Positions 3 through 46,774 are shown, counted from the first letter of the stretch. The stretch is DNA of 64,000 nt from Acidobacteriota bacterium (GCA_963666055.2 CAXWPH010000007.1:160001-224000), one strand, 5' to 3'. The notes: generated from the letters alone by a model not told the origin. Program-made: numbers and translations.

Positions 3-512
3 CCAGGCGGGGCGCGGCCTGAGCGACCCACCACCTACATCGAGGAGGAGGGCGTTGCCTGGCGCGACAAGGCCGGCGCGATCCACGAGGGCTGGTACTC
101 GCTGCGGCGCCACGTCGCCGTGGAAGAGTTCGGTCACTCGATTCACCGCAGCGGCCTGCCGTTCATCGATCCGCAGCATGATGTCGTTGCAGAGATCAAC
201 GCTGCGTACATCAACGCTCTGCGAGAAGGGCTCTACTCGCCGCCTCAGTATCTCGATGGGCCTGGGCTCACTGACCCGTCGATGGCAGATCAGCTGGAGA
301 GCGAGATCGAGGCGCTGCGCGACGGGGAGTACTTCGCCGTCGGACTCGACTGCTTCTACGGCGTCGTGCACGAAAATGAGGAGTACACGCTCAAGACGCG
401 CGATGAGATGCGGCTACGCGACCCGATGCTCTACGAGATCATCAGCCGTTACTTCCCGACCGAAGAATGGTCGCCGATGGATTATGCGCCCGAGATCTAC
501 GAGGAGCGCTGA
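3..512 (+). CDS. Zincin-like (anthrax LF/PPEP-type) domain protein with EExxH motif; 5'-partial
   Basis: Frame is open from base 3: PTTYIEEE...AVEEFGHSIH...GEYFAVG...RDPMLYEII. Confidence 0.7.
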   Translation, partial: PGGARPERPTTYIEEEGVAWRDKAGAIHEGWYSLRRHVAVEEFGHSIHRSGLPFIDPQHDVVAEINAAYINALREGLYSPPQYLDGPGLTDPSMADQLESEIEALRDGEYFAVGLDCFYGVVHENEEYTLKTRDEMRLRDPMLYEIISRYFPTEEWSPMDYAPEIYEER

Positions 513-527
513 ATCGTGACGGGGTGG

Positions 528-1547
528 TCAGGGAGTCGCCTCGGACCCGTCACCTTCGAACGCCGCCATGTCGATCTCCGACCAGGGCGGCAGCGACTCG
601 AGGTCGACGTTGCCGCCGCTCAGGATCAATCCAACTCGACGTCCCCCGGGCTCGATACGGCGCTCCAGGAGTGCCGCGACCGGTACCGCGGCGCTCGGCT
701 CGATGACGATCTTCATGGTCTCCCACACCAGGCGCATGGCGGCGAGAATGCCAGCCTCCGAGACCGTGACGATGTCTGTAACGTGCTCAGCGATGATCGC
801 GAAGTTGCGCTCACCGAGGGAGGTACGCAGCCCGTCGGCACGAGTGCGCGGATCGGTCTGCGGCACGATCGCCCCCAGGCGCAACGACTGCAGGGCATCG
901 TCGGCGCACTCCGGCTCGCAGCCGATGACCGCGACGGACGGATGGCGCGTCGCCGCCGCGATACACGTGCCGCCGAGCAGCCCCCCGCCCCCGACGGGGG
1001 CGAGTGCGAGGTCGAGATCAGGTACGTCCGCGAGCAGCTCGACCGCACAGGTGCCCTGCCCGGCGATGGTCCGCGGGTCGTCGTACGGGCGCACGGAGCT
1101 GGCCCCGAGACGCTCCTGGATTTGGGCAGCGGCAGCGTCGAACTCCTCGGCGGTGGGAATGTCGCCCTTACCTTCCACCCAGACGATGTTGCCGCCGTAG
1201 CGCTGCACGGCGGCCACCTTGGAGCGCACCGCCACCTTCGGCATGGCGATGTGGGCCTGCATGCCACGCGTTTGCGCCGCCAGCGACACCGCCGCCGCGT
1301 GGTTGCCCGAGGAGCTCGTAACGATGCCGCGCGCCGCCTCCTCGTCAGTCAGGGACATGACGGCGTTGAAGGCGCCGCGAATCTTGAACGCACCGGTCTT
1401 CTGGAAGTTCTCGCATTTGAAGAAGCAGCTGGCGCCGAAACGCCGATCCAGCGTCGAGCTCGTCATCACTGGCGTACGGTGGATGTACGGCGCGATGCGC
1501 GCATGGGCCTCCTCGATCTCCTTTCGACCTACCGATGCTTGGCTCAC
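528..1547 (-). CDS. PLP-dependent serine/threonine dehydratase (serine racemase-like)
   Basis: FKCENFQKTGAFKIRGA, SSGNHA, PVGGGGL, SGGNVD motifs. Confidence 0.92.
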   Translation of the reverse strand: MSQASVGRKEIEEAHARIAPYIHRTPVMTSSTLDRRFGASCFFKCENFQKTGAFKIRGAFNAVMSLTDEEAARGIVTSSSGNHAAAVSLAAQTRGMQAHIAMPKVAVRSKVAAVQRYGGNIVWVEGKGDIPTAEEFDAAAAQIQERLGASSVRPYDDPRTIAGQGTCAVELLADVPDLDLALAPVGGGGLLGGTCIAAATRHPSVAVIGCEPECADDALQSLRLGAIVPQTDPRTRADGLRTSLGERNFAIIAEHVTDIVTVSEAGILAAMRLVWETMKIVIEPSAAVPVAALLERRIEPGGRRVGLILSGGNVDLESLPPWSEIDMAAFEGDGSEATP

Positions 1548-1600: not shown

Positions 1601-2521
1601 ATGCGGACGCTAACCATACCTGTCCTGCTCGCGCTTCTCGCTGCCTGCGGCGGCATGCCGACCGATGATTCGACGCCGGTCGCCGAGGAGGCCCCGGCCG
1701 ACGACACTGTCGGCGGGCTCCTTGGCGGCTGTATCCTCATCGCGCCGCTCGGAGCGGTGCCAGATGATCTGTATACCCGCACCGACATCACCGCCAGCGA
1801 TACCTACCCGCCGTTCACCAAGGAGCTCACCGTCTACGGGCTCACCCTTATCGGCGATGCGAGCGTCTCCGATCCGTTCATGCAGCTGGTCGCGGATGCC
1901 GTCACCGAGAGCTTCCCAGCCGACCAGAGCCTCGATCTGGCGGCCCAGCAGCGTGTGATGCGTAGCATGTACGAGCACAAGGCGCTCATCCCGTTTTTCG
2001 TGGGACAGCCGCAGCGAAACGACGAGTTCGACCGCCACTTCGACGCCGTGCGGAATCAGAACAGCGTTTGCGACATCATCATGCAGGTCGACGACGGACA
2101 GGTCATGGAGGTCGTCGAGCACATCCTCCACTACGTCAGCGATGTCGGGCTGCACTTCGCCTTCCCGGCGGAATGGGGCATCTCCCCTGACTCCGAGTTG
2201 GCTGAGGCGATGGATCGCGCCGTCGAGGCCGGCTACTACGACATTGGCTCGTACGACGACATCGACGAAGACGAGGTGCGGTTCAGGGTCGCCATACAGG
2301 AGTTCGCCTACTGGGTAATCTCGACTGCCTGGAACCTGCAGGCGGACTACGGTCCGCAGGGCGGTGGCGAGTGGACAATCATCGACGCCACCGACCTGCA
2401 GGCCAAGATGCCCGAGCTATACGCCATGGTCGAGCGCACCGTGGGTCGCACCATGGTCGCCCCGAGCCTGGAGACACTGCGAGCCATCGGACCCACCAGA
2501 GCAGAGGAGGCACAAGACTGA
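1601..2521 (+). CDS. Lipoprotein with divergent zincin-like domain (EHxxH)
   Basis: GGAGG RBS before ATG 1601; LLAAC lipobox; VVEHILH...QEFAYW. Confidence 0.7.
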   Translation: MRTLTIPVLLALLAACGGMPTDDSTPVAEEAPADDTVGGLLGGCILIAPLGAVPDDLYTRTDITASDTYPPFTKELTVYGLTLIGDASVSDPFMQLVADAVTESFPADQSLDLAAQQRVMRSMYEHKALIPFFVGQPQRNDEFDRHFDAVRNQNSVCDIIMQVDDGQVMEVVEHILHYVSDVGLHFAFPAEWGISPDSELAEAMDRAVEAGYYDIGSYDDIDEDEVRFRVAIQEFAYWVISTAWNLQADYGPQGGGEWTIIDATDLQAKMPELYAMVERTVGRTMVAPSLETLRAIGPTRAEEAQD

Positions 2522-3353: not shown

Positions 3354-4898
3354 ATGAGCACGGTGGTTCGAGCCAGCCTCGGCGTCGTGCTCCTGGGGGT
3401 CGCCGCACTTCCGGCCATGTCGGCCCAGGAACCCGTCCACTGGGACGTCGTCGACGCGATCATGCAGGAGGCCTTCGAGCACTCCGATCTCATGGAGAAT
3501 GCCAGCTGGCTCACGGATGTGTTCGGGCCACGCAATGCCAAGTCGCCGTCGTACATCTCAGCAGCCGAGTGGGCGCGCGACCGCCTCATCCAGTACGGCC
3601 TGCCGAACGCCGCCTTGGAACCGTACGAGTTCGGTAGCGGCTACGTGAACGAGTACATCTCGGTGCACATGATGACGCCGCAATACATGCCGATCATCGC
3701 CTATCCGGCAACCTGGTCGGCCGGCACCGATGGCCGAGTAGTCGGCACTGCGGTTTACCTGGACTTCGGCTCGATCGAGTCGGAAGCCGACCTAGAGCGC
3801 TACCGTGGAAAGCTGCACGACGCCATCGTGCTTACGCATCCGGCGCAACAGCTCCCGACGCAGTTCACGCCCCGCTCGACCATCTTCACCGACGCGCAGC
3901 TCGACGAGATGGCACGCATCCCGATCGGCCCGACACCCGAGCGGCGCAACCGGAGACGCGATTCAGGCCGGCTCGGCCGGCGGCAGATCATCGACTTCGT
4001 TGTCAGCGAGGGCGCCCTTGCCATCGTCCGTACCGACGGCCGAGGCGATTACGGCACCGTGACCGTCTCCAACACTGGCTACACGCTCGAAACACGGCCA
4101 TGGGAGCCCGATGCGCCGCCCCCGCACACGGAGCTATTCATGGCCGCCGAGCACTACAACCGCATCCTCCGCATCCTCGAAAAAGGCATCGCCGTCGAGG
4201 TCGAGCTGGATCTCCGCGTGCGCTTCACCGACGAGGACACCCTCGACTACAACGTTGTCGCCGAGATTCCAGGCACGGATCTGGCCGACGAGCTTGTGCT
4301 GCTGGGCGGCCACCTGCAAGCGAATCCGGCGGGCACAGGCGCGACCGATGACGCCGCCGGGGTCGTGGTGTCGATGGAGGTCATGCGCATCTTCCAGGAA
4401 CTGGGGATCCAGCCGCGACGCACCGTGCGCGTCGGCCTCTGGGGCGGCCACGAGATGGGTGTCTTCGGAAACCGCGCCCACGTCGCCGCCAACTTCGCCG
4501 ACGTCAAGACACGCCAGTACAAAGCCGACTACGACAATCTCTCGGCCTACTTCAACGTCGATCACGGTAGCGGCAGAATCCGCGGCGTCTCGATCATGGG
4601 CAATGAGGTCATCCGATCGATCTTCAGCCAGTGGATGAAACCACTGGGCGGCCTCGGCATGTCCCACCTGTTCACCACCGGCATGCAGCACGAGGCCTAC
4701 GAAGAGGTCGGCCTGCCGGGCTACTACTTCGTTCAGGACGACCTCGACGGCGATGCCCACACGCACTCCAACATGGACGTCTACGACCGGCTGGTGGAAG
4801 AGCACCTGATGGCCAACACCGTGATCCTGGCTACCTTCGTGTACCACGCCGCCATGCGCGACGAGAAGCTGCCGCGTGTCGCGCCAAGACCCTGGTAA
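3354..4898 (+). CDS. M28-family peptidase homologue (PA domain) with altered metal-site motifs
   Basis: Signal peptide; NVVAEIPG, GGHLQ, GATDDAAG, WGGHEMG, HSNMDVYD. Confidence 0.85.
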   Translation: MSTVVRASLGVVLLGVAALPAMSAQEPVHWDVVDAIMQEAFEHSDLMENASWLTDVFGPRNAKSPSYISAAEWARDRLIQYGLPNAALEPYEFGSGYVNEYISVHMMTPQYMPIIAYPATWSAGTDGRVVGTAVYLDFGSIESEADLERYRGKLHDAIVLTHPAQQLPTQFTPRSTIFTDAQLDEMARIPIGPTPERRNRRRDSGRLGRRQIIDFVVSEGALAIVRTDGRGDYGTVTVSNTGYTLETRPWEPDAPPPHTELFMAAEHYNRILRILEKGIAVEVELDLRVRFTDEDTLDYNVVAEIPGTDLADELVLLGGHLQANPAGTGATDDAAGVVVSMEVMRIFQELGIQPRRTVRVGLWGGHEMGVFGNRAHVAANFADVKTRQYKADYDNLSAYFNVDHGSGRIRGVSIMGNEVIRSIFSQWMKPLGGLGMSHLFTTGMQHEAYEEVGLPGYYFVQDDLDGDAHTHSNMDVYDRLVEEHLMANTVILATFVYHAAMRDEKLPRVAPRPW

Positions 4899-4967: not shown

Positions 4968-6398
4968 ATGAAGCTACGCACAATCCTGGTCCTACTCGCC
5001 ATCTCGCTGCCGACTTTCTCGCAAGCGCAGATCGCCAACCAGACCGCTAAGTCACGGGCGGAGATCCTGCACCTGATCCGGCGCGAGAAGCTCGACCTCA
5101 TCCTCCCCGGAGCGATGCGCGACAACAACGTCGACATGTGGATCCACGTCGTGCGCGCCGGCAACCCCGACCCCATGTCGGTGCACTTCGGATCGGCCAG
5201 CGGCTACCTGATCTTCACCGACCGCGGCGGCAGCCGCATCGAGCGCGCCGTTCTCGGCGGCGGCGGGCACCCGGAGCTGTTCGACATCTTCGGCTCAGAC
5301 GAGCTTGCCCGCGCCGTAGAAGGGTACGACTTCGGCAACCAGGACCCCGCCGTGTACGACGAGCTGCGCGAGTTCGTGGCCGAGCGCGACCCGCAGACGA
5401 TCGCCGTCAACACCTCGGACTGGCTGGCGATCGCCGATGGGATCTCGCACTCCGACTATGTCAAGCTCGAGCGCATTCTCGGCCCGGAGTACTCGTCGCG
5501 AATCGTTTCGGCGGAGAACGTGATCACGGATTTCCGAGCGCGGCGCGTACAGCGTGAACTCGTCGCGTTTGCCAACGCGCTCGAGGCGCATCGAGAGATC
5601 CTCGAGCGGGCGCTCTCACGCGAGGTCATCACGCCGGGACAAACCACCCTGGGAGAGATCGGCTGGTGGGTGCGCGAGGAGATGTTCCGCCGCGGCCTCA
5701 ACCACGGCACCTCAACCGGGGTGAGCATCCCGAGGATCCTCTACTCGGCCAAGTCCGAGCCCATCGACCCGCCGGACGTGCGCTGGTGGATCCACCACAA
5801 CGACTACGTCATCCAGCGCGGCGACTTCCTCACCTACGACATCGGGGTGCGCTATCTCGACTACTTCGTCACCGACTACAAGCGCAACGCCTACGTGCTG
5901 CAGGAGGGCGAGACAGGCGTTCCCGACAGCATCCAGCACGCCTTCGATCAGGCGATCCGCGCTCGCGAGCTCATCCGGGCCAATATCCGCATCGGCAGGA
6001 CGGCGGGTCAGACGCTCGAAGCCATCGTTCAGGCGCTCGAGGAAGTGGGGTACATCTATACCCCCTTCATCGACATCGGCACGGAAGACTACAAGCTGGT
6101 CCAGCGGATGCTGGCAGACACCGACCAGTCGGGCTTCTCCATCGACCTCCACAGCCAGGGCAACAACGGCGGCAGCCTGGTGACCGTCGGCCCCTCGGTA
6201 GCACCGTTCCGCTCGGATCGCGACCACCTGACGATCCAGGAAAACCACATCTTCTCGTTCGAGTACATGGTGCACACCAACCTGCCCGAGCGTCCCGGCT
6301 TCCCGGTGTCGCTCAACATCGAGGGCAATCACGTGGTCACCCACCGCGGCGTCGAGTACCTGTACCCGCCGAACGAGCGCATTCTGCTGATTCACTGA
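4968..6398 (+). CDS. Exported M24-family (Xaa-Pro aminopeptidase-like) metallopeptidase
   Basis: Signal peptide; D-D-H-E-E ligands in TYDIG..TDYKR, LHSQG, SFEY, NIEGN. Confidence 0.85.
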   Translation: MKLRTILVLLAISLPTFSQAQIANQTAKSRAEILHLIRREKLDLILPGAMRDNNVDMWIHVVRAGNPDPMSVHFGSASGYLIFTDRGGSRIERAVLGGGGHPELFDIFGSDELARAVEGYDFGNQDPAVYDELREFVAERDPQTIAVNTSDWLAIADGISHSDYVKLERILGPEYSSRIVSAENVITDFRARRVQRELVAFANALEAHREILERALSREVITPGQTTLGEIGWWVREEMFRRGLNHGTSTGVSIPRILYSAKSEPIDPPDVRWWIHHNDYVIQRGDFLTYDIGVRYLDYFVTDYKRNAYVLQEGETGVPDSIQHAFDQAIRARELIRANIRIGRTAGQTLEAIVQALEEVGYIYTPFIDIGTEDYKLVQRMLADTDQSGFSIDLHSQGNNGGSLVTVGPSVAPFRSDRDHLTIQENHIFSFEYMVHTNLPERPGFPVSLNIEGNHVVTHRGVEYLYPPNERILLIH

Positions 6399-6411: not shown

Positions 6412-7665
6412 ATGAGATTCCCGCCGAGGCTGTTGCTGATGGTCGTGGTTCTGGCGTGCGCACCCGCGCCGGTCAGCCCCCAGTCCGCCCTCACGCTTCC
6501 GGACATCGACACTTCGGGCTCGCCGAACGGCATCGTCGAGCTGCCTGCCGATGTCCCGGCTGTCTTCCGTGAGGTCTTCGTCAAATACACCAAGCTCATC
6601 GCGCCCAACGGCAAGCCGATCCACTTCCTGGCGCAGGACGGCTGGAGCGATGACCGCATTCTCAAGGCGCGCAACGTGATGCAGCATGTGCTCACCGACG
6701 TGCCGGGCTCCCGTTACGGCGCCGACAAGAGCGTCGTGGCCAACTCGATGTCGGATCGCAAGGCGACGATGGTGCTGTTCAACACCGAGCCCGAGCTGCG
6801 CACCGCCTTCGCGAACACCGACCTGCGCAGCGCCGACCTCAGCATGCAGGACCTGCGCGCCAACGAGTGCCCGGTCGCGGGCGACGAGGACTACATGGCG
6901 CACCGCACCCGCGACGCCTCGTTCGAGGAGATCATCCACCTGGTACACGACTACGGCATCAAGCCCGCCCTGCCGCAGATGCAGGATGCCCTGCGCGAGA
7001 TCGACGCCGAGGCCACGGCGCGCGGAATCTGGCGCGGCTGGCCCGACGACGAGGTTGAGAACCACCCCAACGAGTACCTCGGCGTGATCAACGACAACTA
7101 CCTCGATCTGTGGACTGTATTGCCAACGGTGTATGAGGGACGGCCGATCGAGGACGACAGCATGCCCGCCGGACACACGCACTTCGGACGCTACGGCGCC
7201 CGCGGCCGCGAGGGGATGCGGGCCACCGATCCGAAGGGCCTGGCCATCGTGCAGGAGTTCTTCCCGCCGTTCCTGACCTACAACCCACACCTGCCGATCG
7301 ACTTCGAGGGCACCTTCTCGCTGACCGTGGACCCAGACCTGCGCTATACCACCAAGTCGCAGCATCTACGAGACGTCACCCTGACCGGCGGCAACGACGC
7401 CAACCTCGTCGGCAACGGCTGGGGTAACGCGCTCACCGGCAACGCCGGCGACAACTCCCTGCGCGGCAACGGCGGCGACGACCTGATCGACGGTGGCGAT
7501 GGCACCGACACGGCAACCTTCGTCGGCAACGCCGCCGACTACGAGATCGTCCACGATAGCGGCGTCACACGGGTGATCGATACACGCATCGGCCGCGACG
7601 GCACCGACGTCTTGCTCGGTATCGAGCGCCTGGAGTTCGCCGACCAGGCCATCGAGCTCAATTGA
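6412..7665 (+). CDS. EExxH zincin-like protein with C-terminal RTX/serralysin-type Ca-binding repeats
   Basis: RDASFEEIIHLVH...NEYLG; GNAGDNSLRGNGGDDLIDGGDGTD. Confidence 0.75.
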   Translation: MRFPPRLLLMVVVLACAPAPVSPQSALTLPDIDTSGSPNGIVELPADVPAVFREVFVKYTKLIAPNGKPIHFLAQDGWSDDRILKARNVMQHVLTDVPGSRYGADKSVVANSMSDRKATMVLFNTEPELRTAFANTDLRSADLSMQDLRANECPVAGDEDYMAHRTRDASFEEIIHLVHDYGIKPALPQMQDALREIDAEATARGIWRGWPDDEVENHPNEYLGVINDNYLDLWTVLPTVYEGRPIEDDSMPAGHTHFGRYGARGREGMRATDPKGLAIVQEFFPPFLTYNPHLPIDFEGTFSLTVDPDLRYTTKSQHLRDVTLTGGNDANLVGNGWGNALTGNAGDNSLRGNGGDDLIDGGDGTDTATFVGNAADYEIVHDSGVTRVIDTRIGRDGTDVLLGIERLEFADQAIELN

Positions 7666-10600
7666 CCGTGACCCGAAAACAGACCGTAAGGCTTCAACGT
7701 TGGGCCGCCGCGATCGGCATGCTGGTGTTGCTGTCGCCCGCCGTTGGGTTCCTGGAGAGTGCTGCCTCGCCGCCCGCACCGTATGCGCGGGGGCGCTCGC
7801 AACATGGCGTCGGTGCCCGGTTGCCTCTGCAACCTACCCGCACCGTCGAGCTGACCACGGACGCCGTCACCTGGATGTCGCTCGACGTCTCCCCCGACGG
7901 TCGGACGATTGCCTTCGCGACCCTCGGCGATCTGTACCTGATGCCGATCTCGGGCGGCCATGCGCAACGCATCAGCTCCGGCATGGCGCTCGACGCACAG
8001 CCACGCTTCTCGCCCGACGGCGGCCGCATCGTGTTCACCAGCGACCGCAGTGGCTCCGAGAACCTGTGGACGCTGGAGGTCGGCAAGACGATCGACGACA
8101 GCACGCTGGAATCGACAGCCTCTGGCCTACGAGCCCTGACCGCCGGCCGCGATGCCTCCTACGCCTCGCCCGAGTGGAGCCCAGATGGCTCCACGGTCGT
8201 CGCCTCGCGCACCGATCGCTTCACCTGGATCGACGTGATGCACACCGTCTGGAGCTATCCGTCAACGGAAGGTCCGGGAACGCAGCTGCTTGTTAACGAC
8301 CAGCCGGTCTACGGCATGGGCGCGGTGTTTGGTCCGGACGGAGCGCTGTACCTGTCGCACCGGACAGAACGCGGCAACCCCTACGGCCACCGGATCGACC
8401 GCTTTGACCTGGCCACCGGCAAGGTCACCCCGATCACCGCCCCCGCCGGCGGAGCGGTGCGTCCGGCGATCTCGCCCGACGGCCGCTGGATGGTCTACGC
8501 CTCCCGCCACGACGGCCAGACGGGCTATCGGCTGCGCGACCTGAACGCGGACACCGAGCGCTGGCTGACCTTTCCGGTGCAACACGACCTACAGGAAAAC
8601 GATTGGATGGGCACGTCATCGGATCACATGCCTGGCTATGCGTTCGTCCCGGACAGCTCAGCCATCATCGCCGCCATCAACGGCAAGCCGCAACGTATCG
8701 ACCTGGCAACCGGCACGCGCTCAGCGATCGAGTTCACCGCCAACATCTCGCTGCCGATCGGACCGCTCATCCACTTCGAGACACCGGTTGCACGTGGACC
8801 GGTCGTGGTGCGCTCTATTCGCTGGCCGGCCCAATCACCCGACGGCTCGAAGCTGGCGTTCACGGCGGTACACAAGCTATGGGTGCAAGATACCGGCAGC
8901 GGCGCGGTGTCGGCCATAGCGTCGATGGACGAGCTGCAGGCGATGCCGGCCTGGAGCCACGATGGCTCGACGCTTGCATTCGTAACCTGGTCGGACTTCG
9001 AGGGCGGCCAGGTGTATCGCGTCGCTGCCGACGGCAGCGATCTGCGGCGCGTCAGCCAGCAAGCCGGCTTCTATACCGACCCCGTGTGGGTGCCCGGAGA
9101 CCAGGAGATCCTCATAACACGCGGATCCTGGCAACAGCGCGGCGCCAACCTCGTATGGGAACGGATACCCGCAGATGGGGGGCCACATACGCTGGTGGGG
9201 CCAGCCAATGGCGACCGCCCACACTTCGCCGATCGCGACGACCGCTTCTACGCGTACGATCCCGACGAGGGGTTGTTCTCGCAGGCACTCGACGGATCCG
9301 GCCGGCAAACGCACCTTACAGTGACCGGATGGCGCGAGCCCCTTGGTCCAGGCGGACCGCGGCCGGCCGACGCGGTTGTCATGGGACCCGACGGTGATGC
9401 AGCGTTGGTATTGGCGGACATGCGACTGTTCCATGTGCCGATTCCGGCGGCCGAGACGCCCGTAACGTTATCCCTTGCCGAGCTACCGGCGAGGTCGAGG
9501 TTGACACACCTCGATGTGCTCGGCGTCGACTTCTTCGAGTGGGGCCCGCGAGGCAACACCGCTATGTGGTCGCTTGGCAACGCCATTTTCGAGCGCACCG
9601 TCGGCACTGCGGACTCGGCACCTGGGGGCTCGGCACCGAGCGAGCGCCGCATCGAGATCGAGCTGCCGCGCGATCGCGTCGAGGGCACACTGGTGCTACG
9701 CGGCGCACGGATCCTGACGATGGATCCGACTGCCGATGAAGATCCGGCGCAGCGGGACGGCATCATCGACGACGGCGCTGTAGTGATCTTCAACGAACGG
9801 ATCGCCCAAGTCGGACGCTCGGTCGACGTGGCGACACCCGATGGTGTCCGCGAGATCGACATCAGCGGGACAACGCTGCTTCCAGGGTTTGTCGATCTGC
9901 ACGCCCACCTGCGCGCCGCTCGCGGCATGCACCGCAATATACGCCGTGCGCCAGGTAGTTTAGGTAGTCCCGTGCGATGGTCGGGCCGCGTACTTTTTCA
10001 ACCGGCCGGGCGATGTACCCCGACGTCCGCATCGGCTCGCTACAGGATGCGCGCAACCTGATGCGACGCTACCGCGACTACTACGGCCACCACACGATCA
10101 AGCAGTATCTGACCGGCGATCGCACGGTGCGTCAGTGGATGGCCATCGCGGCGCGCGAGTTCGGGCTCACGCCGACCACCGAAGGCGTCGACATGAAGAC
10201 AATGATCACCCAGGTCATCGACGGCTATTCACTCGAGCACGTGTTGCCCCATTTCCCGCTGGCACCCGACGTGGTGCAGCTGCTGGCGCAGTCTGGCACC
10301 TACTACGACCCAACGTTAGTGGTCGGCACAGGCCCGCGATCGATCTACTACTGGTGGACACGCACCGACGTGCACGACGACCCCAAAGTACGCCGCTTTA
10401 CTCCGCACGAGGTGATCGACGACCGCACCCGCCGGGTGGAGTGGTTCCACGACAGCGAGTTTTACTGGCCGGAGCATTCCAAGGACGTGGCCGCGGTCGT
10501 CGACGCTGGCGGCAAGGTCACCGCCGGAAGCCACGGGGAGATGCAGGGGATCTCGTTCCACTGGGAGATGTGGAACCTCGGCGCCGGCGGCATGCCACCG

Positions 10601-10867
10601 CTCGAGGTGCTGCGCGCCGCCACGCTGACCGGCGCCGAGGGCATCGGCTTCGGCAACGATCTCGGCTCGATCACCGCCGGCAAGCTCGCCGACATGCTCG
10701 TGCTCGAAGCCGATCCGCTCGACGATCTGCGCAACACCACATCACTGCGCTACGTGATCAAGGGCGGTCGGCTGTACGACGCTGACACACTCGACGAGCA
10801 ATGGCCCAGGGAGCGGCCGCTCGGGCCTCTCTATTGGCACGGTGATCAACCGAGCCGGTCGCAGTAG
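7662..10867 (+). pseudogene. PD40-repeat amidohydrolase, broken near 9940-9975
   Basis: SPDG repeats and PGFVDLHAH in one frame; GPRTFSTG, GSHGEMQG and GKLADM in a second frame. Confidence 0.85.
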
Positions 10868-34367: not shown

Positions 34368-34440
34368 GAGATGCCCGTCTATCATCCGGTGGTGGAAGAG
34401 GGTGTCCGCACCGCGCTCCGAGATCTTGCACAACGTCTCA
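34368..34440 (+). pseudogene. C-terminal remnant of a dihydrolipoamide dehydrogenase-like gene
   Basis: Translates to EMPVYHPVVEEGVRTALRDL. Confidence 0.65.
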
Positions 34441-34512
34441 GGATAACGGCCTGGCGGCGGCCGGAGAACCGAGCCGTCGCTCCGGGAGAGTGCGGTCGCC
34501 ACATGTCTCGTA

Positions 34513-34905
34513 TCAGTGTGCCGATTCCTGCAGTTCGCTGAGCTCTTTGCTCAAGAAGAAGTCAAGCACCGTTCGGATCAACACGATGATGCCGAGTTGC
34601 ACGAGAGCGTAGAAGGTGGCGCTATGGAAGAAATTCTCGGCTCCCGGCTCGCTTACTGTGACGGCCACGAAGGAATCGATGATGTCGGACACGATCATGA
34701 GCTCAAGCGCGAAGAGGATGTGGATCCCGACCACGCAACGGAGTTTTCGAATAACGGCGGTCCGGATCTCCCAGGGCTCGCGTGCGAACTCTGTTCGCAA
34801 CCAACCGAACGCTCCGCGAATGAAACCTAGGAGCAGGAGAGCGAGACCGAACACGTCGATGACGTGAGCAGCCCACTCGAAGACCCATACGATGTTCTCA
34901 ACCAT
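34513..34905 (-). CDS. DUF1622-like membrane protein
   Basis: ILFALELMIVSDII..LGIIVLIRTVLDFFL. Confidence 0.85.
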   Translation of the reverse strand: MVENIVWVFEWAAHVIDVFGLALLLLGFIRGAFGWLRTEFAREPWEIRTAVIRKLRCVVGIHILFALELMIVSDIIDSFVAVTVSEPGAENFFHSATFYALVQLGIIVLIRTVLDFFLSKELSELQESAH

Positions 34906-34909
34906 GAGC

Positions 34910-35662: not shown

Positions 35663-36152
35663 GGTTCGGTTCTCCTTGCCGTGTGCCCGGCTCCTTGTTT
35701 GGTCTATGTGGCCATTTCCAGATTGGGCGGTGAATTGCGGGAACGGTCGCCGTTGCGGCCGAACGAGACTATTCGAATGCTTCCGCGCACGATCCTAGGA
35801 CGTTCCGGACGATTGCGTCGGCGACATCAGCGACCACGGTAATTGACGGGTCTCGTCAAGTGACGTTGTATCAAGTCTACTTATATCAGGCCTTGACATG
35901 ACTAGTATTGAAGCGTACGCTGTCCTTGAAGCCAATGAGATGACACAGAAAATAGGTTGCTCTATCTCGCTGGAAGAACCCATACGCCTCGAACCCACCG
36001 GTATCGTGCTGCGGCCCGACGGAACGGTCTCGTTCAGTGCATATGCAAGCAGTCCCATCGGGCGACTGACAGGGGACGAGACCGCATCGGTCATCCACTA
36101 CTAGCAGAATTTGTAACGGGCACTACCAAGCCGAATTAACCAAAGAGATCCA

Positions 36153-36890
36153 ATGAACACGTTCGAAAACAAAGTCGTCCTGATTACCGGTGGTGGGACG
36201 GGAATTGGAAAAGCCACCGCAGCGTCCTTCATAGAAGAAGGCGCCAAGGTGGTCATCGTTGGCCGGCGAGCCTCGGTCCTGGAAGAGACGGTCAGTGAGC
36301 TCGGAGATTCCGCGCAGTTTGTCGTGGGAGATGTCAGCAAGAGCGCTGGTCCCAAGGCGATTGTCGACGAGGTCATTGCGAGGCATGATCGTTTGAATGT
36401 CGTCGTGAACAATGCGGGGACGGTAACGATGGGTCCGGTCATGGAGCTCGATGATGAAGAGATCGAAAGGGTCTTTCGAACCAATGTCTTTTCGATACTG
36501 GCGGTATCGCGAGAAGCACTCCCTCACCTCATCAAGACCCAGGGTTCCATCATCAATATTTCAAGTACGGTATCTACATCCGTCATGCCAGGTATCTCTG
36601 TCTATGCGGCTTCCAAGGCGGCTGTCGATCACATAATCAAAACTCTTGCCGTAGAATCCGGACCTAGCGGAGTTCGAATCAACGCGGTGGCCCCGGGATT
36701 GACGGCGACGGATATGGCAGCGGAAGCCTCACCGGATGGGCAGATGCAGGAGATGATGGTGCGTCAGACCCCGATGGGTCGTATTGGAGAACCCGAGGAT
36801 ATTGCCAAGGTCGTGCGCTTGCTTGCCAGTGATGATGCCGGATGGGTGACCGGGCAAATCGTGCAGGTTTCTGGTGGGCTGATGCTGTAA
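36153..36890 (+). CDS. Short-chain dehydrogenase/reductase
   Basis: TGGGTGIG, NNAG, YAASK. Confidence 0.95.
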   Translation: MNTFENKVVLITGGGTGIGKATAASFIEEGAKVVIVGRRASVLEETVSELGDSAQFVVGDVSKSAGPKAIVDEVIARHDRLNVVVNNAGTVTMGPVMELDDEEIERVFRTNVFSILAVSREALPHLIKTQGSIINISSTVSTSVMPGISVYAASKAAVDHIIKTLAVESGPSGVRINAVAPGLTATDMAAEASPDGQMQEMMVRQTPMGRIGEPEDIAKVVRLLASDDAGWVTGQIVQVSGGLML

Positions 36891-36909
36891 GTCGGCACTG
36901 GGATTCGTC

Positions 36910-37002
36910 GCCGGGGATGTGCTTCAGGATGTGGCACACGGTGGCGTGCTCGGTGATAAAGGCGACGATCTTCATTTCGGCGCCACAGAAGGGGCACAGC
37001 AA
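36910..37002 (-). mobile_element. Remnant of an IS91-family transposase C-terminus
   Basis: LCPFCGAEMKIVAFITE..V..ILKH resembles the IS91/ISCR zinc-ribbon tail; it abuts the 62-bp repeat. Confidence 0.6.
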
Positions 37003-37004
37003 GG

Positions 37005-37066
37005 GGGGCGGGCTTCATTGGCTAGATATCGTCTTCCCAGCCCATCTCGCGGAAGAACTCCTCGCG
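37005..37066 (+). repeat. 62-bp exact direct repeat, copy 2
   Basis: Identical to 34299-34360. Confidence 0.95.
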
Positions 37067-38127
37067 CGACGGGAACAGGAACGACAGGATCTCGTACAGC
37101 TCCGGATCAAGGGTGGGCAAGTTCTCGGGTGTCAGCGCCACGCCCTCGAAGCTACGACGGCGGTGGGCGCCGTAGAAGATATCGACGCCGAAGGCCAGAT
37201 ATTCGTCAGCGAAGGAATCGGCCGGCAAACCGGGCTGCGGCCTGTAGAAGCCGCGCTCGATGGCGACGGCGGTAGCGCGCTCGATTCGCTCCTGCACCTC
37301 GGGGTTAGGCCACCATGATGCCGCCGCGGTGGATCAGGTGGGTGATCTCCTCCACCGAGGCATCGCGGCGGAGCCCTTCGGGGCCTCCCAACCGCAGGTA
37401 GTCGGGGATGATCTCCTCGTCTTCCAGGTCCTGGGTGCGTAACCGGAGCGCCCGGCGGTGCATGTAGAAGCCGATCGAGGTATTGCGCTCCTCGAACGTA
37501 TAGAAGAGCGTCATGATCGCCTGCCGCCTGCTTGACCACCTCGGTGATGCGACCGGACCCGTTACGGTCCTTCAAGAGCAGCGTGTTGGCGATCTTGGCG
37601 GCGTAGTCGACCTTCGCCGGGTCGACCCGCGCTGTGGCCCAGAAGGTCACGCCAGGCGTCTCGACGCGCTGCGTGAAGATGTCGAGGGCGTTCTCCTGCT
37701 TGGGCGTCTCCTCGAGGGCGATGATGATGAGCACCGCCTCCATGAATCCGTCTTCGTTGTCGGCTCGCACCTCGGCGTAGTAGTGCGCGTCATAGGCGCC
37801 AGGGTGGGCCTTGAGGCTGATCTCGCCGGTGTCCGAGTCGATGCCCACGATCTCGGTGGCGTCGAGCTGGCCCTCTCGCAGGTAGTTGCGCCGATCGCCT
37901 CCGGGGATCGGGGCCACCAGACTCCAGGTGATCTTCTTGTCGGTCGGAAAGATGAGCTCGGCGCTGCCTAGCATCTCGCCGATCCGTGTGTCCCAGGTCA
38001 CCAGGAAACGCTCGAACTCGTCGGTGAGGACAGGTTCCTGACCAACCGTCGCCGCGCTCGGCAGAACCGTCAGCGCGACAACGGCCGCTGCGAGCATGAC
38101 GAACAGCACGCCTTGTTTTCTTCCCAT
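37022..38127 (-). pseudogene. Exported EExxH zincin-like protein with cadherin-like N-domain; two frameshifts
   Basis: Three ORFs join at about 37520 and 37306; RDASVEEITHLIH...DEYLAFG..LDPELYEIL. Confidence 0.75.
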
Positions 38128-38148
38128 CGTTGTCTCCAACGTCTCCGT

Positions 38149-39564
38149 TCAGCGAATCAGCAGGAGGCGCGAGTTGGGCGGGTAAAGCCACTCGACGCCG
38201 TTATCGGTGACAATCGCGTTGTCCTCGAAGTTGATAGCCAACCTGGTGCCGTCGTCCATCAGCGAGTGGACCACGAACTCCAGCGAGAACAGGTGCGTCG
38301 GCTGGATGACCAGATGCGCTTTGCTCTGTCGGAACGGGGCGATCGCCGGGCCGACGGCGGCTTGGCTGTTGCCGGTGTTGCCGACCATGTGACAGTCGAT
38401 CGAGATGCCGGTGCGCCGATCTTCGCCAAGTGCCGCCACGATGTCACGATCGCGCCCATCGTTGACGAAAGGCGTGTACACGTAGCCCTCCGCCTCCAAG
38501 GCCTGCGCCAGGATCGCCAGCGTGTCGCCGGCCGTGCGACCCACCTTGATGTTGGCACGGATAATCTGGCGCGCCCGATGGCCCTGATCCCAGGCATGTT
38601 GCAGATCGGCCGGCGGTGCCGACTCACCCTCGCGCAACACGTAGGCGTGGCGCTTGAAGTCGGTGCCGAAGTTCAGATACCGGATTCCCATGTCGTAGGT
38701 CAGGAAGTCCCCACGGCCGATTACGTAGTCGGGCCGCCGTGAGGTCTGCGGATCGGCGCTGGCGGAACGCGAGATGCGCGGCATGCTGACTCCGAAGGAG
38801 GAGCCAACCCCCATTTCCAGTAGCCGATCCTGCACCCACCAGGCAGCGTCGGCGCTCGTTGTCAGCCCCGGTGTGATCACTTCGTTGGAGAGCACGCGCT
38901 CCAGCGTTCGCCGAGTCATCTCCCCCGCCGTGGAAAACGCCGCGAGCTCGCGCCGCACGCGGCGCACACGGAAGTCGGTGATCAGCTGCTCGGCCGAAAC
39001 CAACCGGTCGGCGTACACCGGACCGATGGCCTCGACCAGCTCCTGGTAGTCGTTGCGCGACATGCCGTCGGCCACCCCGAGCCAGGCCGAGCTGTTGATG
39101 CCTATGCGCTGCGGGTCGCGCTCGTGCACATGGTCGCGCAGGTCCCCCAGATCGCCGACGATGTCGTAGGCTGTCCGATCCAACAGGTGAAACGGCTGCA
39201 GCACGGCTCGCTCGATGCGCTCGCCGCCGCGGTCGGTGAAGATGAACACCCCGAACTCGGCGCCCAAGTCGCGCTCGAGCGGATCGGGATTGCCCATGCG
39301 GATCCAGTGGATCCACATATCGATACCGTTGTCGCGCATCGCTCCCGGCAAGACGAGATCGAACTTCTCCTGCCGGATGAGGTCGAGGGTCTCCTGGCGC
39401 GCCCGCGCGTCGAGCACGCGCACGTCGAGAGCCTGCTGTGCGTCGGCCGGCCCATCGCCGATGAGAATAGCCAGCAGTGCGAAACAGAGGGCCGCCGGCA
39501 ACGGGGTTCGGCGCACGGTTCCTGCGGCGACCGAACGGCTCACGGCAGACCGAGGGCGACCCAT
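38149..39564 (-). CDS. Exported M24-family metallopeptidase (paralogue of 4968-6398)
   Basis: LPGAMRDN.DMWIH, TYDMG..TDFKR, CHMVG, SLEF, NFEDN. Confidence 0.85.
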   Translation of the reverse strand: MGRPRSAVSRSVAAGTVRRTPLPAALCFALLAILIGDGPADAQQALDVRVLDARARQETLDLIRQEKFDLVLPGAMRDNGIDMWIHWIRMGNPDPLERDLGAEFGVFIFTDRGGERIERAVLQPFHLLDRTAYDIVGDLGDLRDHVHERDPQRIGINSSAWLGVADGMSRNDYQELVEAIGPVYADRLVSAEQLITDFRVRRVRRELAAFSTAGEMTRRTLERVLSNEVITPGLTTSADAAWWVQDRLLEMGVGSSFGVSMPRISRSASADPQTSRRPDYVIGRGDFLTYDMGIRYLNFGTDFKRHAYVLREGESAPPADLQHAWDQGHRARQIIRANIKVGRTAGDTLAILAQALEAEGYVYTPFVNDGRDRDIVAALGEDRRTGISIDCHMVGNTGNSQAAVGPAIAPFRQSKAHLVIQPTHLFSLEFVVHSLMDDGTRLAINFEDNAIVTDNGVEWLYPPNSRLLLIR

Positions 39565-42294: not shown

Positions 42295-42308
42295 ACCGGG
42301 TGCCCCTC

Positions 42309-43910
42309 ATGAGCTACCGCGCCATCACCTTGCTGGCGTTGCTGTCGTGGCCCGTCGCCGCCAGCGGCGGCATGCTGGCCCAGGAACCGGTGGACTACGA
42401 CGTCATCCAACGGATCAAAGACGAGGCCTTCAACCGCTCGCGAGTCGCGGAGCTCGTCAGCACCATCGCCGACGTCTACGGACCGCGCTTTTCCAACTCC
42501 CCTGCCTACAACGAAGCAACGCACTGGGCGCGCGAGAAGTTCCGGGAGTTCGGCGTCGATGCCGTGGTCGAGCCATTCGGCACCGTCGGGGTGGGCTGGC
42601 AGAACGAGTACACCTCGTTTCACATGATGGAGCCGCAGTACCAGACACTAATCGCCTACCCCGTTCCATGGACCCGCGGCACCGACGGCCAGATTCGGAG
42701 CACCGCGATCCAGGTGAACGCCGAGGAGATTCGCTCGGCGGCCGATCTCGAGCCGTACGGCGCGCTGGTGGACGGCAAGATCGTCTTCATCGCTCCCTCA
42801 CGAGAGCTGCAGCCGAGCTTTACGCCCGACGGGATCCGCTTCACTCGGGAGCAGCTCGACGACTGGGCGAGCTTTCGCATCCTGCCGGAGCCGGAGCTCG
42901 TGCTGCTGGCAGAGGCTGAGTACGACAAGCTGGTCGACGGTGCGCTGGCCGCACCGATGGAGGCGACCGCCATCGCCGAGTTCCTCGATCGTGCCGGCGC
43001 CGTGGCGCTCGTTTCGCCGGGTCTCGGTACCGATCAGGGCGCCTTCGACAAGGGTACGGTCCGCGTCGTGGGCGGTGAGCCCATCATGCCGGGCGACCCG
43101 AAGCCGATGCCACATGTGATCGTCGCCGCGGAGCACTACAACCGGGTAATCCGCGTGCTCGGCATGGGTAGGGATGTCGAGCTCGAGCTGGAGGTCCGCG
43201 TTCGCTACGACGAGCAAGACCTGCAGGACTACAACGTCGTGGCGGAAATTTCCGGCAGCGATCTGGCCCACGAGGTGGTCATTATCGGCGGCCACTTCGA
43301 CGCCGAGTCGGCCGGCACCGGGGCCACCGACAACGGCGCCGGCAGCGCCGTGGTCATGGAGGCGATGCGTATTCTTCGGGCCATCGACGCGCCCCCGCGG
43401 CGCACCATCCGCGGCATCCTCTGGGGATCTGAGGAAGCCGGCCTGCTCGGTTCGCGCGGCTACGTGCGCAACCACTTCGTCGATATCGAGTCCGGCGAGC
43501 GTCTGCCCGATTACGAGAACTTCTCGGTGTACTTCAACACCGACTGGTACGGTCGCTTCCGCGGCCTGTTCATCGAGGGCAACAGCCTGGTGGCGCCTAT
43601 CTTCCGCGCCTGGATGGAGCCATTCCACGACCTCGGATTTACCCACCTGCTGCCCGTGCCGACCGGCGGCACCGACAGCGTCTCGTTCAACGAGGCGGGC
43701 TTGCCAGGGTTCAAGTTCCTGCAGGACGACCTCGAGTACTTCACCAAGACCTGGCACTCCAACATGGACGTCTACGATCGCATCGTCGTCGCCGACCTGA
43801 TGGGCAACGCCGCGATTCTGGCCAGCTTCGCCTATCACGCCGCCACGCGTGACGAGAAGATCCCCAGATCCGACACGCAGGTCATCAGCAAGCGTTCACT
43901 GAATCGCTAG
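42309..43910 (+). CDS. M28-family peptidase (carboxypeptidase Q-like), canonical site
   Basis: GGHFD, GATDNGAG, WGSEEAG, GGTD, WHSNMD. Confidence 0.9.
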   Translation: MSYRAITLLALLSWPVAASGGMLAQEPVDYDVIQRIKDEAFNRSRVAELVSTIADVYGPRFSNSPAYNEATHWAREKFREFGVDAVVEPFGTVGVGWQNEYTSFHMMEPQYQTLIAYPVPWTRGTDGQIRSTAIQVNAEEIRSAADLEPYGALVDGKIVFIAPSRELQPSFTPDGIRFTREQLDDWASFRILPEPELVLLAEAEYDKLVDGALAAPMEATAIAEFLDRAGAVALVSPGLGTDQGAFDKGTVRVVGGEPIMPGDPKPMPHVIVAAEHYNRVIRVLGMGRDVELELEVRVRYDEQDLQDYNVVAEISGSDLAHEVVIIGGHFDAESAGTGATDNGAGSAVVMEAMRILRAIDAPPRRTIRGILWGSEEAGLLGSRGYVRNHFVDIESGERLPDYENFSVYFNTDWYGRFRGLFIEGNSLVAPIFRAWMEPFHDLGFTHLLPVPTGGTDSVSFNEAGLPGFKFLQDDLEYFTKTWHSNMDVYDRIVVADLMGNAAILASFAYHAATRDEKIPRSDTQVISKRSLNR

Positions 43911-43957
43911 CAGGCCGTGGTGGAAGTGTGACGCACCAAACTTCCACCACGGCCTGC
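43910..43957. repeat. 18-bp perfect inverted repeat with 12-nt loop (MITE/REP-like)
   Basis: gcaggccgtggtggaagt..acttccaccacggcctgc; related half copies at 21466 and 46804. Confidence 0.85.
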
Positions 43958-43978
43958 CAACCCCCCGGAGCAATCAGC

Positions 43979-46774
43979 ATGCCCTTGGTCGCCACCGTTC
44001 TCGTCGTCCTCACCATGCTGGCCGGCGCCGTCGCTGTCGGTGCCCCGCAAGCGACCGAGCCGCTGCCGGATATCGACACGTCCACCTCGGCCAACGGCGT
44101 CGTGGCACTGCCGCAAACCGTCTCGCCGGTCATTCGCGAGGTCTTCGCGAAGTACACCAAGGTGGTGGCGCCCAACGGCAAGCCGATCCACATCCTCGCC
44201 CAGGACGGCTGGAGCGACGCCCGCATCGTCAAGGCGCGCAATGTGCTCGAGCACATCCTGCGCGACGTTCCGGGAACCAAGTACGGCGCCGACAAGCGCA
44301 TCGTCGCCAATGCGATGGCCGACAACCGGGCAACGCTGACCCTATTCAGAACCGAGCCGGACATGCGCGCCGCCTTTCGCGGGCCGCTGCGGGATGTCGA
44401 GCTCGGCATGCAGGACCTGCGCGCCAACGAGGCGCCGGTCGAGGGTCACGAGGACTACATGGCGCACCGCACCCGCGACGCCTCCTACGAGGAGGTGCTG
44501 CACATGGTGCACGACTACGGCATCAAGCCGGCGCTGCCCGAGATGCAGGAGGAGCTACGGCGTATCACCCGCGCCGCCATGGACCGAGGCTTGTGGCGCG
44601 GCAACCAGGATGACCTCGAGAACGAGCCCAACGAGTACTTCGCAGCGATCTACGACAACTACTTGGATCTCTGGACGGTGCCTCCGACCGTCTATGAGGG
44701 GCGGCCGATAGACCCGGACAGAATCCCCGCCGGCACCTCCCATTTCGGCGGATACGGCGCCAGAGGCCGCCACGGCCTGCGACTGTCGGATCCCGAGGGG
44801 CTGGCGATCCTGCAGGAGTTCTTCCCGCCGTTCCTCACCTACACACCCGAGCTACCAGCAGAATTCGAGGGCACGTTCTCGATGCAGCGCGACGGCTCGC
44901 TGCGCTACACCGCCAAGTCGCAGCACCTCAAGAACGCCACGTTAACCGGCAACAACGACGCCGGCCTGATCGGCAACGCTTGGGACAACCAACTCACCGG
45001 CAACAGCGGCGACAACACGCTGCGCGGCAACGCCGGCGCCGACTTGCTCGACGGCGGCCACGGCACCGACACCGCCGTCTACGAGGGCAATGCCGACGAA
45101 TATGACGTGGCACGTGACGGCGCCACGATCAGGGTCACAGACCGACGTATCGATCGCGACGGATCCGACCTGCTCCTCAATATCGAGCGCCTCGCCTTCG
45201 CCGACGGCACCGTAAGCTTGCAGGACTTGGCGAGCGCCGCGGGCCCGGCCAGCTACGCGGATCTGCTGGGGTTGTTCGAGGACTTCCGTGCGTTCCTCGC
45301 CGCCCAGAGGGTCGAGGGCGTGCCCGACTACTCGGCGAGCGCCATGGCGGATCAGTTCGAGGAGCTGAAGCAATATCAGCAGCGCCTCGCCGCAATGGAT
45401 CCTGGTGACTGGTCAATCTCCCAGCAGGTCGACTATCAGCTGGTGCGCGCGGAGATGAACGGACTCGAGTTCCGCCACCGCGTGCTGGTGCCGTGGTTGC
45501 TCGATCCAGGCTTCTACAACGACGCGCTGCCACGCACACGTCTGCGGGGCGACGGGGCGCTCACCGAGGAGCAGCGCGCCACCCTGCGAGACCGGCTCCG
45601 ATCTGTCGGCGGCATTCTCGAGCAGGCACGGGTGGACCTCGACGACCTGTCGGCCGTCGCCGGCGACCTGGGCACGCTGGCGGTGCTGTCGCTAGGCGAC
45701 ACCCGGGCCGCCTACGAGTCGCTGCGAGCGCGCCTGGCGGAGCATCACCCGGAGCTCGTAGCCGACCTCGAGGCGGCGCTCGCCGCCATCGATGGCTACA
45801 TCGGGTGGATCGAGGCCAACAAGCACCGCATGACGGCACGCGCCGGGGTAGGCAAGGACAACTACAACTGGTTGCTCAAGAACGTCTACCTCTTCCCCTA
45901 CACCTGGGAAGAGGTGCGCACGATCGTCGAGCTCGAGGACAACCGCGTCATCACCTACCAGCGGCTGGAGGAGAACCGCAACCGCGACGTCCCCGCCATC
46001 GAGCCGGTGCAATCGCAGGCCGAGTACAAGGCCAGCGTCTCCGCGGCGATCGACCACCTGATGGATTTCCTGCGCGACCAGGAGATCTTCACGGTGAACG
46101 ACTACCTGACGCCCGACGAGTACTTCGGCTCCTGGCACGGGTTCGACAACCCCTGGCCCGAGAAGCACGATTACTTCTTCAATTTCTCGCACCGTGAGCC
46201 GTTGATGGAGGAGACGCACGAGATGGTCGGACACCATTTCGACGGACTGCGGTCGAGAAACGACGACCGTCCGATTCGCGGCGGCCGCCGCCCCTTCAAG
46301 ATCGGCACGGCGCGCGGTGAGGGCTTCGCCTTCGCGCTCGAAGAGCTACTGATGCACGCCGGCTACCTCGACGGACGAAACCCGCACGGCCGCGAGATCG
46401 CCTACGAGCAGTCGGCGTTCCGCACCGTGCGGGCACTCTCCGACATCTACATGCACAGCGGCGACTGGACGCTCGCCGATGCGATGGAATTCTGCGTCGC
46501 CAACGCACCCCATGGAGAGCTGCTCGATGGCAGCCACCACCTGTGGTTCGAGCTCGACACCACGCTGCGCGGCGTCGGACACCACATGTTGATGGTGGTC
46601 GGCAAGGTGCAGTTCATAAAGCTGTTCCGCGACCGCGCCAACCAGCTAGGCGACGAGTTCAAGCTCAGCGAGTTCCTCGATGAGGTACTCGACACCGGAT
46701 CGATTCCCTGGTCGCTGATCCGCTGGGAGATGACCGGCCTCGACGACGAGATCCGCCAGCTGACGTCCGGATAG
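43979..46774 (+). CDS. EExxH zincin-like + RTX repeats + DUF885-like fusion
   Basis: The N-half closely parallels 6412-7665 and the C-half parallels 25471-27097. Confidence 0.8.
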   Translation: MPLVATVLVVLTMLAGAVAVGAPQATEPLPDIDTSTSANGVVALPQTVSPVIREVFAKYTKVVAPNGKPIHILAQDGWSDARIVKARNVLEHILRDVPGTKYGADKRIVANAMADNRATLTLFRTEPDMRAAFRGPLRDVELGMQDLRANEAPVEGHEDYMAHRTRDASYEEVLHMVHDYGIKPALPEMQEELRRITRAAMDRGLWRGNQDDLENEPNEYFAAIYDNYLDLWTVPPTVYEGRPIDPDRIPAGTSHFGGYGARGRHGLRLSDPEGLAILQEFFPPFLTYTPELPAEFEGTFSMQRDGSLRYTAKSQHLKNATLTGNNDAGLIGNAWDNQLTGNSGDNTLRGNAGADLLDGGHGTDTAVYEGNADEYDVARDGATIRVTDRRIDRDGSDLLLNIERLAFADGTVSLQDLASAAGPASYADLLGLFEDFRAFLAAQRVEGVPDYSASAMADQFEELKQYQQRLAAMDPGDWSISQQVDYQLVRAEMNGLEFRHRVLVPWLLDPGFYNDALPRTRLRGDGALTEEQRATLRDRLRSVGGILEQARVDLDDLSAVAGDLGTLAVLSLGDTRAAYESLRARLAEHHPELVADLEAALAAIDGYIGWIEANKHRMTARAGVGKDNYNWLLKNVYLFPYTWEEVRTIVELEDNRVITYQRLEENRNRDVPAIEPVQSQAEYKASVSAAIDHLMDFLRDQEIFTVNDYLTPDEYFGSWHGFDNPWPEKHDYFFNFSHREPLMEETHEMVGHHFDGLRSRNDDRPIRGGRRPFKIGTARGEGFAFALEELLMHAGYLDGRNPHGREIAYEQSAFRTVRALSDIYMHSGDWTLADAMEFCVANAPHGELLDGSHHLWFELDTTLRGVGHHMLMVVGKVQFIKLFRDRANQLGDEFKLSEFLDEVLDTGSIPWSLIRWEMTGLDDEIRQLTSG

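Follow-up and report, generated by a model that had tools for sequence, protein, structure and literature searches.

The motif HExxH is the textbook signature by which zinc proteases are found and named, and replacement of its first histidine (His1) by glutamate is usually read as the mark of a dead enzyme. The closest described systems to the proteins considered here are the PPEPs, whose site, as set out in the accessible part of PMC12828418, combines HEXXH with a third ligand, a glutamate, an oxyanion tyrosine seven residues before that glutamate, and an antiparallel edge strand that fixes the extended substrate. Here we describe a stretch of 64,000 nucleotides from an Acidobacteriota bacterium (GCA_963666055.2 CAXWPH010000007.1:160001-224000; hereafter the window, meaning the whole stretch) that carries five copies, W1 to W5, of a domain with glutamate in the His1 position. 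The family to which they belong is a real, large and unnamed variant branch of the PPEP/ATLF gluzincins, for which we found no describing paper; the swapped glutamate is its most conserved residue, and it has no Pfam, NCBIfam or PHROG model. The five copies are:

W1, 3..512, plus strand: C-terminal part of a 383-amino-acid, likely exported protein; EEFGH at 123, third-ligand Glu at 327.
W2, 1601..2521, plus strand: predicted lipoprotein (LAAC) with one gluzincin-like domain; EHILH at 2117, third Glu at 2300.
W3, 6412..7665, plus strand: signal peptide, EExxH gluzincin-like domain (EEIIH at 6925, third Glu at 7072) and C-terminal RTX-type beta-roll.
W4, 37022..38127, minus strand: N-terminal beta domain and EExxH domain (EEITH at 37352, third Glu at 37204); broken.
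W5, 43979..46774, plus strand: EExxH domain (EEVLH at 44489, third Glu at 44633), RTX repeats and DUF885 domain.

An earlier reading of the window, made from its sequence only (the sequence-only reading), had taken these five for paralogues. EE..H..H also occurs in shadow frames, so the bare motif alone is no proof of homology, and several pairwise similarities among the copies are weak. A leave-out hidden Markov model (HMM), built from database representatives only, with own-genome rows and three close kin excluded, was scanned against the whole genome in six frames and recovered all five copies at E 1e-16 to 7e-55; the broken W4 came up as three pieces, scoring between 2e-9 and 2e-5. The five window domains are therefore homologous. 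All five motifs reported by the earlier reading are present, each followed by the E[YF] that it described, at the third-ligand positions listed above; DP stands close to the domain end in four copies, with MP instead in W2. The helix after the motif is likewise there, with the pattern A...G[LYFI][YW] rather than the A..G[LYFI][YW] first proposed, and the motif-bearing region 3-512 extends further than was thought, its gene starting 639 nt before the window. RTX repeats (PF00353) are matched in W3 (E 2e-4) and W5 (E 1e-5). The copies represent four old subfamilies that are 20-40% identical, the exception being W3 and W5 at 68%. The earlier picture of an expanded exported family is supported for likely export and varied scaffolds; the expansion is not a local novelty, the subfamilies being old and the family spread over many phyla. 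A prediction made for a W2-W3 heterodimer gave a score of 0.00, which speaks neither for nor against such a pair.

The same HMM found four more copies, bringing the genome total to nine, and seven of these lie inside 83 kb of one contig, a clustering that 0 of 200,000 random placements reproduced. One of the four, a canonical HEFVH paralogue (G000 C7:234330-235025; L008:10330-11025), lies 9 kb past the window, directly downstream of an M24-like gene, and is a natural control for the family; this one genome carries all three states, HExxH, EExxH and EHxxH. The five window domains have no Pfam match, and NCBIfam and PHROG gave nothing above chance-level rows for the nine paralogue domains, so the window copies match no characterised family in these three resources. 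Their nearest named homologues are labelled Acidobacteriota. Sequence searches of the PDB with W3 and with the nine-copy profile returned nothing relevant, the imine-reductase matches there being a short chance motif. A PF07737 search of the own genome gave no match and carries little weight, as 14 controls also gave none. In the ESM Atlas the nearest clusters are unnamed (0.95), and ATLF/M90 clusters at 0.80-0.85 are leads only. The full-text literature, in a coverage with most subscription papers and MEROPS outside it, yielded no account of an EExxH zincin family; judged from listings, EEXXH turned up there only for ZIP transporters and protein design, and the accessible part of PMC8610288 mentions HEXXH members only.

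A profile of the nine paralogue domains, with L011 in place of the broken W4, reached 3,119 clusters (50% identity) at E <=1e-3 and 1,508 at 1e-10. A motif census was taken over the best 150 of the 3,119 clusters, all of whose proteins gave at least one domain to a set of 168 (domain E <1e-8, >120 profile columns); with the nine seeds, this makes 177 domains, comprising 154 EExxH, 10 HExxH, six EHxxH with the third Glu, and seven truncated or otherwise altered. A signal peptide is suggested in 126 of the 150 representatives by a crude hydrophobicity proxy. Many members are stand-alone, single-domain proteins, while tandems mix motif states (HE+EE, HE+EH and EH+EE in both orders; P0304, P0403, P0291, P0292, P0294, P0433), and L045:730-3747 places two EE domains before a DUF885 domain. 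When species genomes were scanned for the pattern of the largest subclade, at least 525 stretches were confirmed, of which the 80 listed span Bacteroidota, Gammaproteobacteria, Chloroflexota, Aminicenantes, Planctomycetota, Marinimicrobia, Poribacteria and others; read from the organism names, the hosts appear mostly marine. Within its own phylum the family is matched in 22 of 300 other genomes, and order-mates reach at least nine matches.

Turning to the site itself, conservation was counted in the main EE clades, 157 domains in all. At position 1 the swapped Glu is present in 156 and is the best conserved column of the domain, which bears out the earlier claim that the swap is a family trait. 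The position-2 Glu, the His and an Asp four residues upstream are each present in 155, and the third Glu in 154. Across all 177 domains the third-ligand Glu is found in 173, in register with HE relatives and with PPEP-3. All five window copies have Glu at position 1 and so lack the two-histidine HExxH. The general-base Glu at position 2 is kept in W1, W3, W4 and W5 and replaced by His in W2, as in 121 of 121 W2 homologues, which also share an invariant extra Glu three residues upstream; a lipobox-like motif occurs in 97 of 120 W2 homologues (crude proxy scan). The W1 subfamily is the closest to HExxH relatives, with EE in 45 of 46 homologues and a gap at the site in the remaining one. Both glutamate codons are used at position 1 (57 GAA, 17 GAG), and degenerate, motif-drifting copies are rare (about four of 177). 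In a 67-row tree (all non-EE rows, seeds, 35 sampled EE and four added; motif columns dropped; LG+G4; no outgroup, and with a long-branch warning) W1 groups with the HE rows at support 100/98. Two independent origins of the swap were considered because of this grouping, but the AU test did not reject a single origin (p 0.497).

The fold was addressed with AlphaFold models of W3 (pLDDT 96.4) and W2 (94.4). In a wide structural search the catalytic domain of W3 matched PPEP-2 (Z 8.0, rmsd 4.8, 157 aligned) and PPEP-3 (Z 7.8), with further matches to 3dl1 (Z 6.7) and lethal factor (Z 5.8); W2 matched PPEP-2 (Z 7.2, rmsd 3.9, 153 aligned), PPEP-3 (Z 7.0) and lethal factor (Z 6.1). PPEP-2 and PPEP-3 thus rank first for the catalytic part of both models (rmsd range 3.9-4.9), followed by MtfA-like 3DL1, Certhrax, lethal factor, collagenases and M1 aminopeptidases. 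Both models have an alpha/beta N-domain, an active-site helix and a helical C-domain, and in both the motif and the third-ligand Glu fall in predicted helices. For the roll part of W3, RTX structures came out on top in the Foldseek and structural searches, and a Foldseek search of viral structures matched the RTX part only. At the profile level, EE and HE align with a probability of 99.05 and E 2e-18; in this alignment the two motifs face each other and the third Glu keeps its register. Two of seven HE-type proteins scanned pass Pfam ATLF, PF07737 (P0300 at 41.1 and P0335 at 33.8 bits, cut-off 27.4), a family that the window copies do not match; the HE profile also aligns weakly with PPEP-3 (E 0.33) and the lethal-factor catalytic centre (E 0.11) over the motif, Tyr and third Glu. 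The moderate Z values are backed because this profile chain from EE through HE to ATLF agrees with them, and a predicted gluzincin fold of the PPEP/lethal-factor type, as the sequence-only reading proposed, is supported for the window proteins.

The family departs from the PPEPs in the surroundings of the site. A Tyr at -7 from the third Glu occurs in two of 42 W3-clade domains and three of 110 in the largest clade. In the latter, Tyr stands at -6 in 105 of 110 domains, mostly within a CxYxC loop, and could substitute for the oxyanion Tyr. A GxGG edge motif is present in 10 of 12 HE-clade domains against six of 165 others; its site coincides with a six-residue gap in the profile, and both models show a single bridge there (DSSP). 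Judged from these alignments, the swap is accompanied by loss of the canonical oxyanion Tyr and by what appears to be a shorter edge-strand hairpin.

With about even confidence, and from sequence and models, we propose that these proteins are likely exported, active metal-dependent hydrolases whose Glu/His/Glu site cleaves short peptides or similar amide bonds once outside the cytoplasm. One metal ion would be held by the Glu at motif position 1, the His at position 5 and the Glu of the downstream helix, while the position-2 Glu would activate water, as in PPEP and thermolysin-type enzymes. By analogy, two carboxylates and one His might suit Mn, Fe or Co no less than Zn; ligand chemistry and the EEXXH of ZIP8 lend plausibility to a replacement of Zn by Mn or Fe, though as an analogy only. 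The apparently shortened edge hairpin and the lost canonical Tyr may direct the enzymes to small substrates or chain ends over extended polypeptides, and the W2 subfamily, with His at the general base, probably performs a different chemistry. The paralogues could then form a panel of specificities in an exported peptide-scavenging kit together with M24, M28 and DUF885 enzymes and transporters.

The peptidase genes near the copies in the window are:

3354..4898, plus strand: M28 peptidase gene, between W2 and W3.
4968..6398, plus strand: M24-like peptidase gene, directly upstream of W3.
38149..39564, minus strand: M24-like peptidase gene, directly upstream of W4.
42300..43910, plus strand: M28 peptidase gene, directly upstream of W5.

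The M24 and M28 neighbours noted from the sequence are thus confirmed for W3, W4 and W5; with the HE paralogue included, an M24-like or M28 gene immediately precedes four of the nine own copies. The adjacency probabilities, 3e-7 genome-wide and 0.002-0.007 locally, are rough, being based on assumed gene counts of 4,800 and 105 and on copies that are not independent. The two M24-like genes are members of a divergent subfamily that has expanded, with 24 ORF matches in the genome and Pfam E values of about 1e-10. Among relatives, eight of 16 labelled copies (five genomes) adjoin or are fused with M24, M28 or DUF885, in regions that were hand-chosen from mutually related genomes and in which ORF calling skipped some copies. 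A shuffled kit around the family in relatives (L130, L135, L137, L139, L140) includes TRAP and sodium-solute transporters, aldo-keto reductase, a PLP enzyme, arginase, proline racemase, ornithine cyclodeaminase and a DapA-like gene, which is suggestive of amino-acid and hydroxyproline catabolism.

A fusion scan of 57 mostly longer proteins identified S8 (two), trypsin and a TAP-like hydrolase as catalytic partners. The loci add fusions to M24-like (two EE subclades), beta-lactamase-family, TAP-like and DUF885 domains; the first three types are found at L029-L032, L016, L138 and L066/L074/L080/L093/L102. EExxH with M24-like fusions occur in four genomes of one genus plus one other, and EExxH with TAP-like hydrolase fusions in Colwellia, Pseudoalteromonas and kin. 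No neighbour is conserved across phyla in the 80 distant loci taken from the at least 525; the recurring ones are an AraC-type regulator (11), dioxygenase-like (8), M24 (5), DUF885 (4) and S41 (4). In Bacteroidota the family gene is often near an AraC-type regulator with a hydrophobic N-terminus, a dioxygenase-like gene or an S41 peptidase (L067, L070, L082, L100, L103, L114, L125 and others).

W4 had been described as a single ORF, 37022-38127. Its coding sequence runs through three frames: compared with the intact orthologue in G002, one extra base has been inserted near 37528 and another near 37306. Contigs of three of four runs reproduce 37037-38300 with 0 differences and 0 gaps, the fourth run covering the region piecewise; one of the runs may be the source sample and two others come from different samples. 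Because these contigs match without difference, the breaks are real and an assembly error is ruled out. W4 is a true pseudogene in this strain, and an intact orthologue is present in seven of 30 relatives. The cadherin-like scaffold suggested earlier was not confirmed for the W4 N-domain: a homologue gave only a weak match to RibLong (Ig-like), at E 2e-4 and below the cut-off. Adjoining the broken copy, window 34000-38000 has a lower GC content (0.575-0.60 against 0.65) and encodes a flavin reductase, and a repeated element lies near 36943-37066.

Elsewhere in the window, a TolB-propeller and amidohydrolase gene (7662-10867) occupies two frames, with the split near 9950-10060. Runs X1 and X3 yielded contigs with this same sequence, while the assembly of X4 carries an insertion of 15 bases at 9606 and breaks off near 9940-9970; the split may be polymorphic. 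An HsdM N-terminal fragment lies at 17368-17871, and two paralogues with weak copper type II monooxygenase C-terminal domains (51954-55173) stand beside cytochrome c and PQQ dehydrogenase genes.

Several observations weigh against active exported hydrolases of gluzincin fold. Z values of 7-8 with rmsd 4-5 fall in the range that the search tool calls 'possibly a common arrangement', and Foldseek, a check that the sequence-only reading had proposed, gave no significant match for the domain (for W3, PPEP-2 at rank 39, E 0.048; for W2, a best E of 0.079). Tyr at -7 is found in nine of 11 HE-clade domains and in none of the five window copies. The best 150 clusters of the census were ranked by a profile with Glu in eight of nine rows, so EE is over-sampled there, although HE rows still entered. 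In the accessible part of PMC3650047, His1-to-Glu zincins are about twofold enriched, mostly M2 peptidases, and are called inactive with unknown role. The metal analogy is drawn from ZIP8, an unrelated membrane transporter in which EEXXH confers Mn transport (PMC10457451, as far as its accessible part goes). Four fusions are to non-peptidase domains (endonuclease/phosphatase, BNR, ThuA, YCII), and linkage to peptidases is not universal, M24 and DUF885 making up five and four of the neighbours in the 80 loci against 11 for AraC.

The best surviving alternative, which we place on the unlikely side, is a pseudo-peptidase: the exported domain would keep its pocket without turning over, binding peptides or metal and supplying them to the enzymes and transporters that neighbour it or are fused with it. 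The loss of His1 and of the canonical oxyanion Tyr together with the apparently shortened edge hairpin would suit such a binder, as would the further loss of the general-base Glu in W2, the frequent fusion to complete hydrolases and the tandems of mixed motif state. Certhrax and lethal-factor N-terminal domains, which we take to be non-catalytic members of the fold, are also among the structural matches. The strict conservation of all four site residues, however, argues against simple inactivation: the general-base Glu is kept in all but two of the 157 main-clade domains, the other ligands are nearly as constant, drifting motifs are rare, and many members stand alone as single domains with no enzyme fused to them. 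The non-proteolytic binding role offered by the sequence-only reading is accordingly less likely than it suggested.

It is more doubtful that these are ordinary PPEP/M34-type zinc endopeptidases in which Glu simply replaces His as ligand with the function unchanged. Fold and register are shared with PPEP, W3 and W5 copy the serralysin layout of a catalytic domain plus an RTX roll, and the Tyr at -6 of the largest subclade could replace the oxyanion Tyr. The apparent loss of the edge hairpin and that of the canonical Tyr nevertheless argue against an unchanged endopeptidase: the GxGG motif is largely confined to the HE clade, the gap and the single bridge coincide with it, and the edge strand is, according to the accessible part of PMC12828418, the means by which PPEP fixes its extended substrate.

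A zincin scaffold given over to non-peptide chemistry, with a two-carboxylate, one-His site serving for instance an Fe(II) oxygenase or an enzyme that hydrolyses non-peptide amides or esters, appears quite improbable. The carboxylate-rich site would fit such chemistry, dioxygenase-like neighbours occur in eight of the 80 loci, and aldo-keto reductases, proline racemase and arginase accompany the relatives' copies. W2 also weakly matches 8s5f, a solved HExxH domain annotated as an alpha-ketoglutarate oxygenase, but this match (Z 3.0, rank 50) is at noise level; export is predicted, the general-base Glu is kept, and the fused catalytic partners are mostly of peptidase or amidase families. Decay into functionless paralogues is very improbable; it applies to the W4 allele only and is refuted for the whole family, since the motifs are invariant in 121 of 121 W3 and W2 homologues save one Glu-to-Asp, W4 itself is intact in seven relatives, the clusters number in the thousands and both Glu codons are used at position 1.

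Active exported hydrolases thus remain our preferred reading. Their activity would make the family a large unannotated class of exported hydrolases across many bacterial phyla. A more far-reaching version, which we offer tentatively and hold to be distinctly short of probable, is a branch of thousands of exported, largely marine gluzincin-fold enzymes with a two-Glu, one-His site, in which Mn or Fe would replace Zn, the substrate rail of the endopeptidases would be lost in favour of a new exo- or amide-cleaving chemistry, and the W2 sub-branch would use a His general base, the whole being an unrecognised part of ocean peptide recycling. Such a branch would be invisible to HExxH-based annotation. 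The natural HExxH, EExxH and EHxxH paralogues of one genome allow ligand set, metal choice and activity to be studied side by side.

Set against known systems, the family shares EEXXH with ZIP8 and ZIP14, which are unrelated membrane transporters. Ferritin-like di-metal carboxylate proteins have two ExxH motifs in a four-helix bundle; a ferritin-like identity does not fit the one conserved ExxH per domain here or the alpha/beta models with a beta-sheet. The M2 (ACE-like) peptidases include the same His1-to-Glu substitution (PMC3650047, accessible part). It is described there in members presumed to be inactive; in the present family, by contrast, the swapped Glu outranks every other residue in conservation across whole clades. 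Like serralysins (M10B), W3 and W5 combine a zincin-like domain with a C-terminal RTX beta-roll; unlike them, they have no HExxHxxGxxH, having instead EExxH with a Glu 48-49 residues downstream as third ligand, and an N-terminal signal peptide is present. Lethal factor/ATLF (PF07737) and the MtfA-like M90 protein 3DL1 resemble the family in fold at Z 5-7, and HExxH relatives in the same HMM family pass PF07737; the window copies differ in missing that model and in having a single catalytic-type domain. No toxin-delivery gene was found among the 42 window proteins scanned, and the context of the window is nutritional, not toxic, in contrast with lethal factor. The family stands outside M34 and ATLF on three counts, HExxH, oxyanion Tyr and Pfam cut-off. 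Its best structural matches remain PPEP-1, PPEP-2 and PPEP-3 (M34; PDB 6FPC, 9G0J, 5A0X), extracellular like the predicted products and built alike from an alpha/beta N-domain, an active-site helix and a helical C-domain with the third-ligand Glu. It differs from them in its Glu for His1, the absence of Tyr at -7, the apparently shortened edge hairpin, an identity of about 10% with no match at the sequence level, and hosts that are Gram-negative and largely marine.

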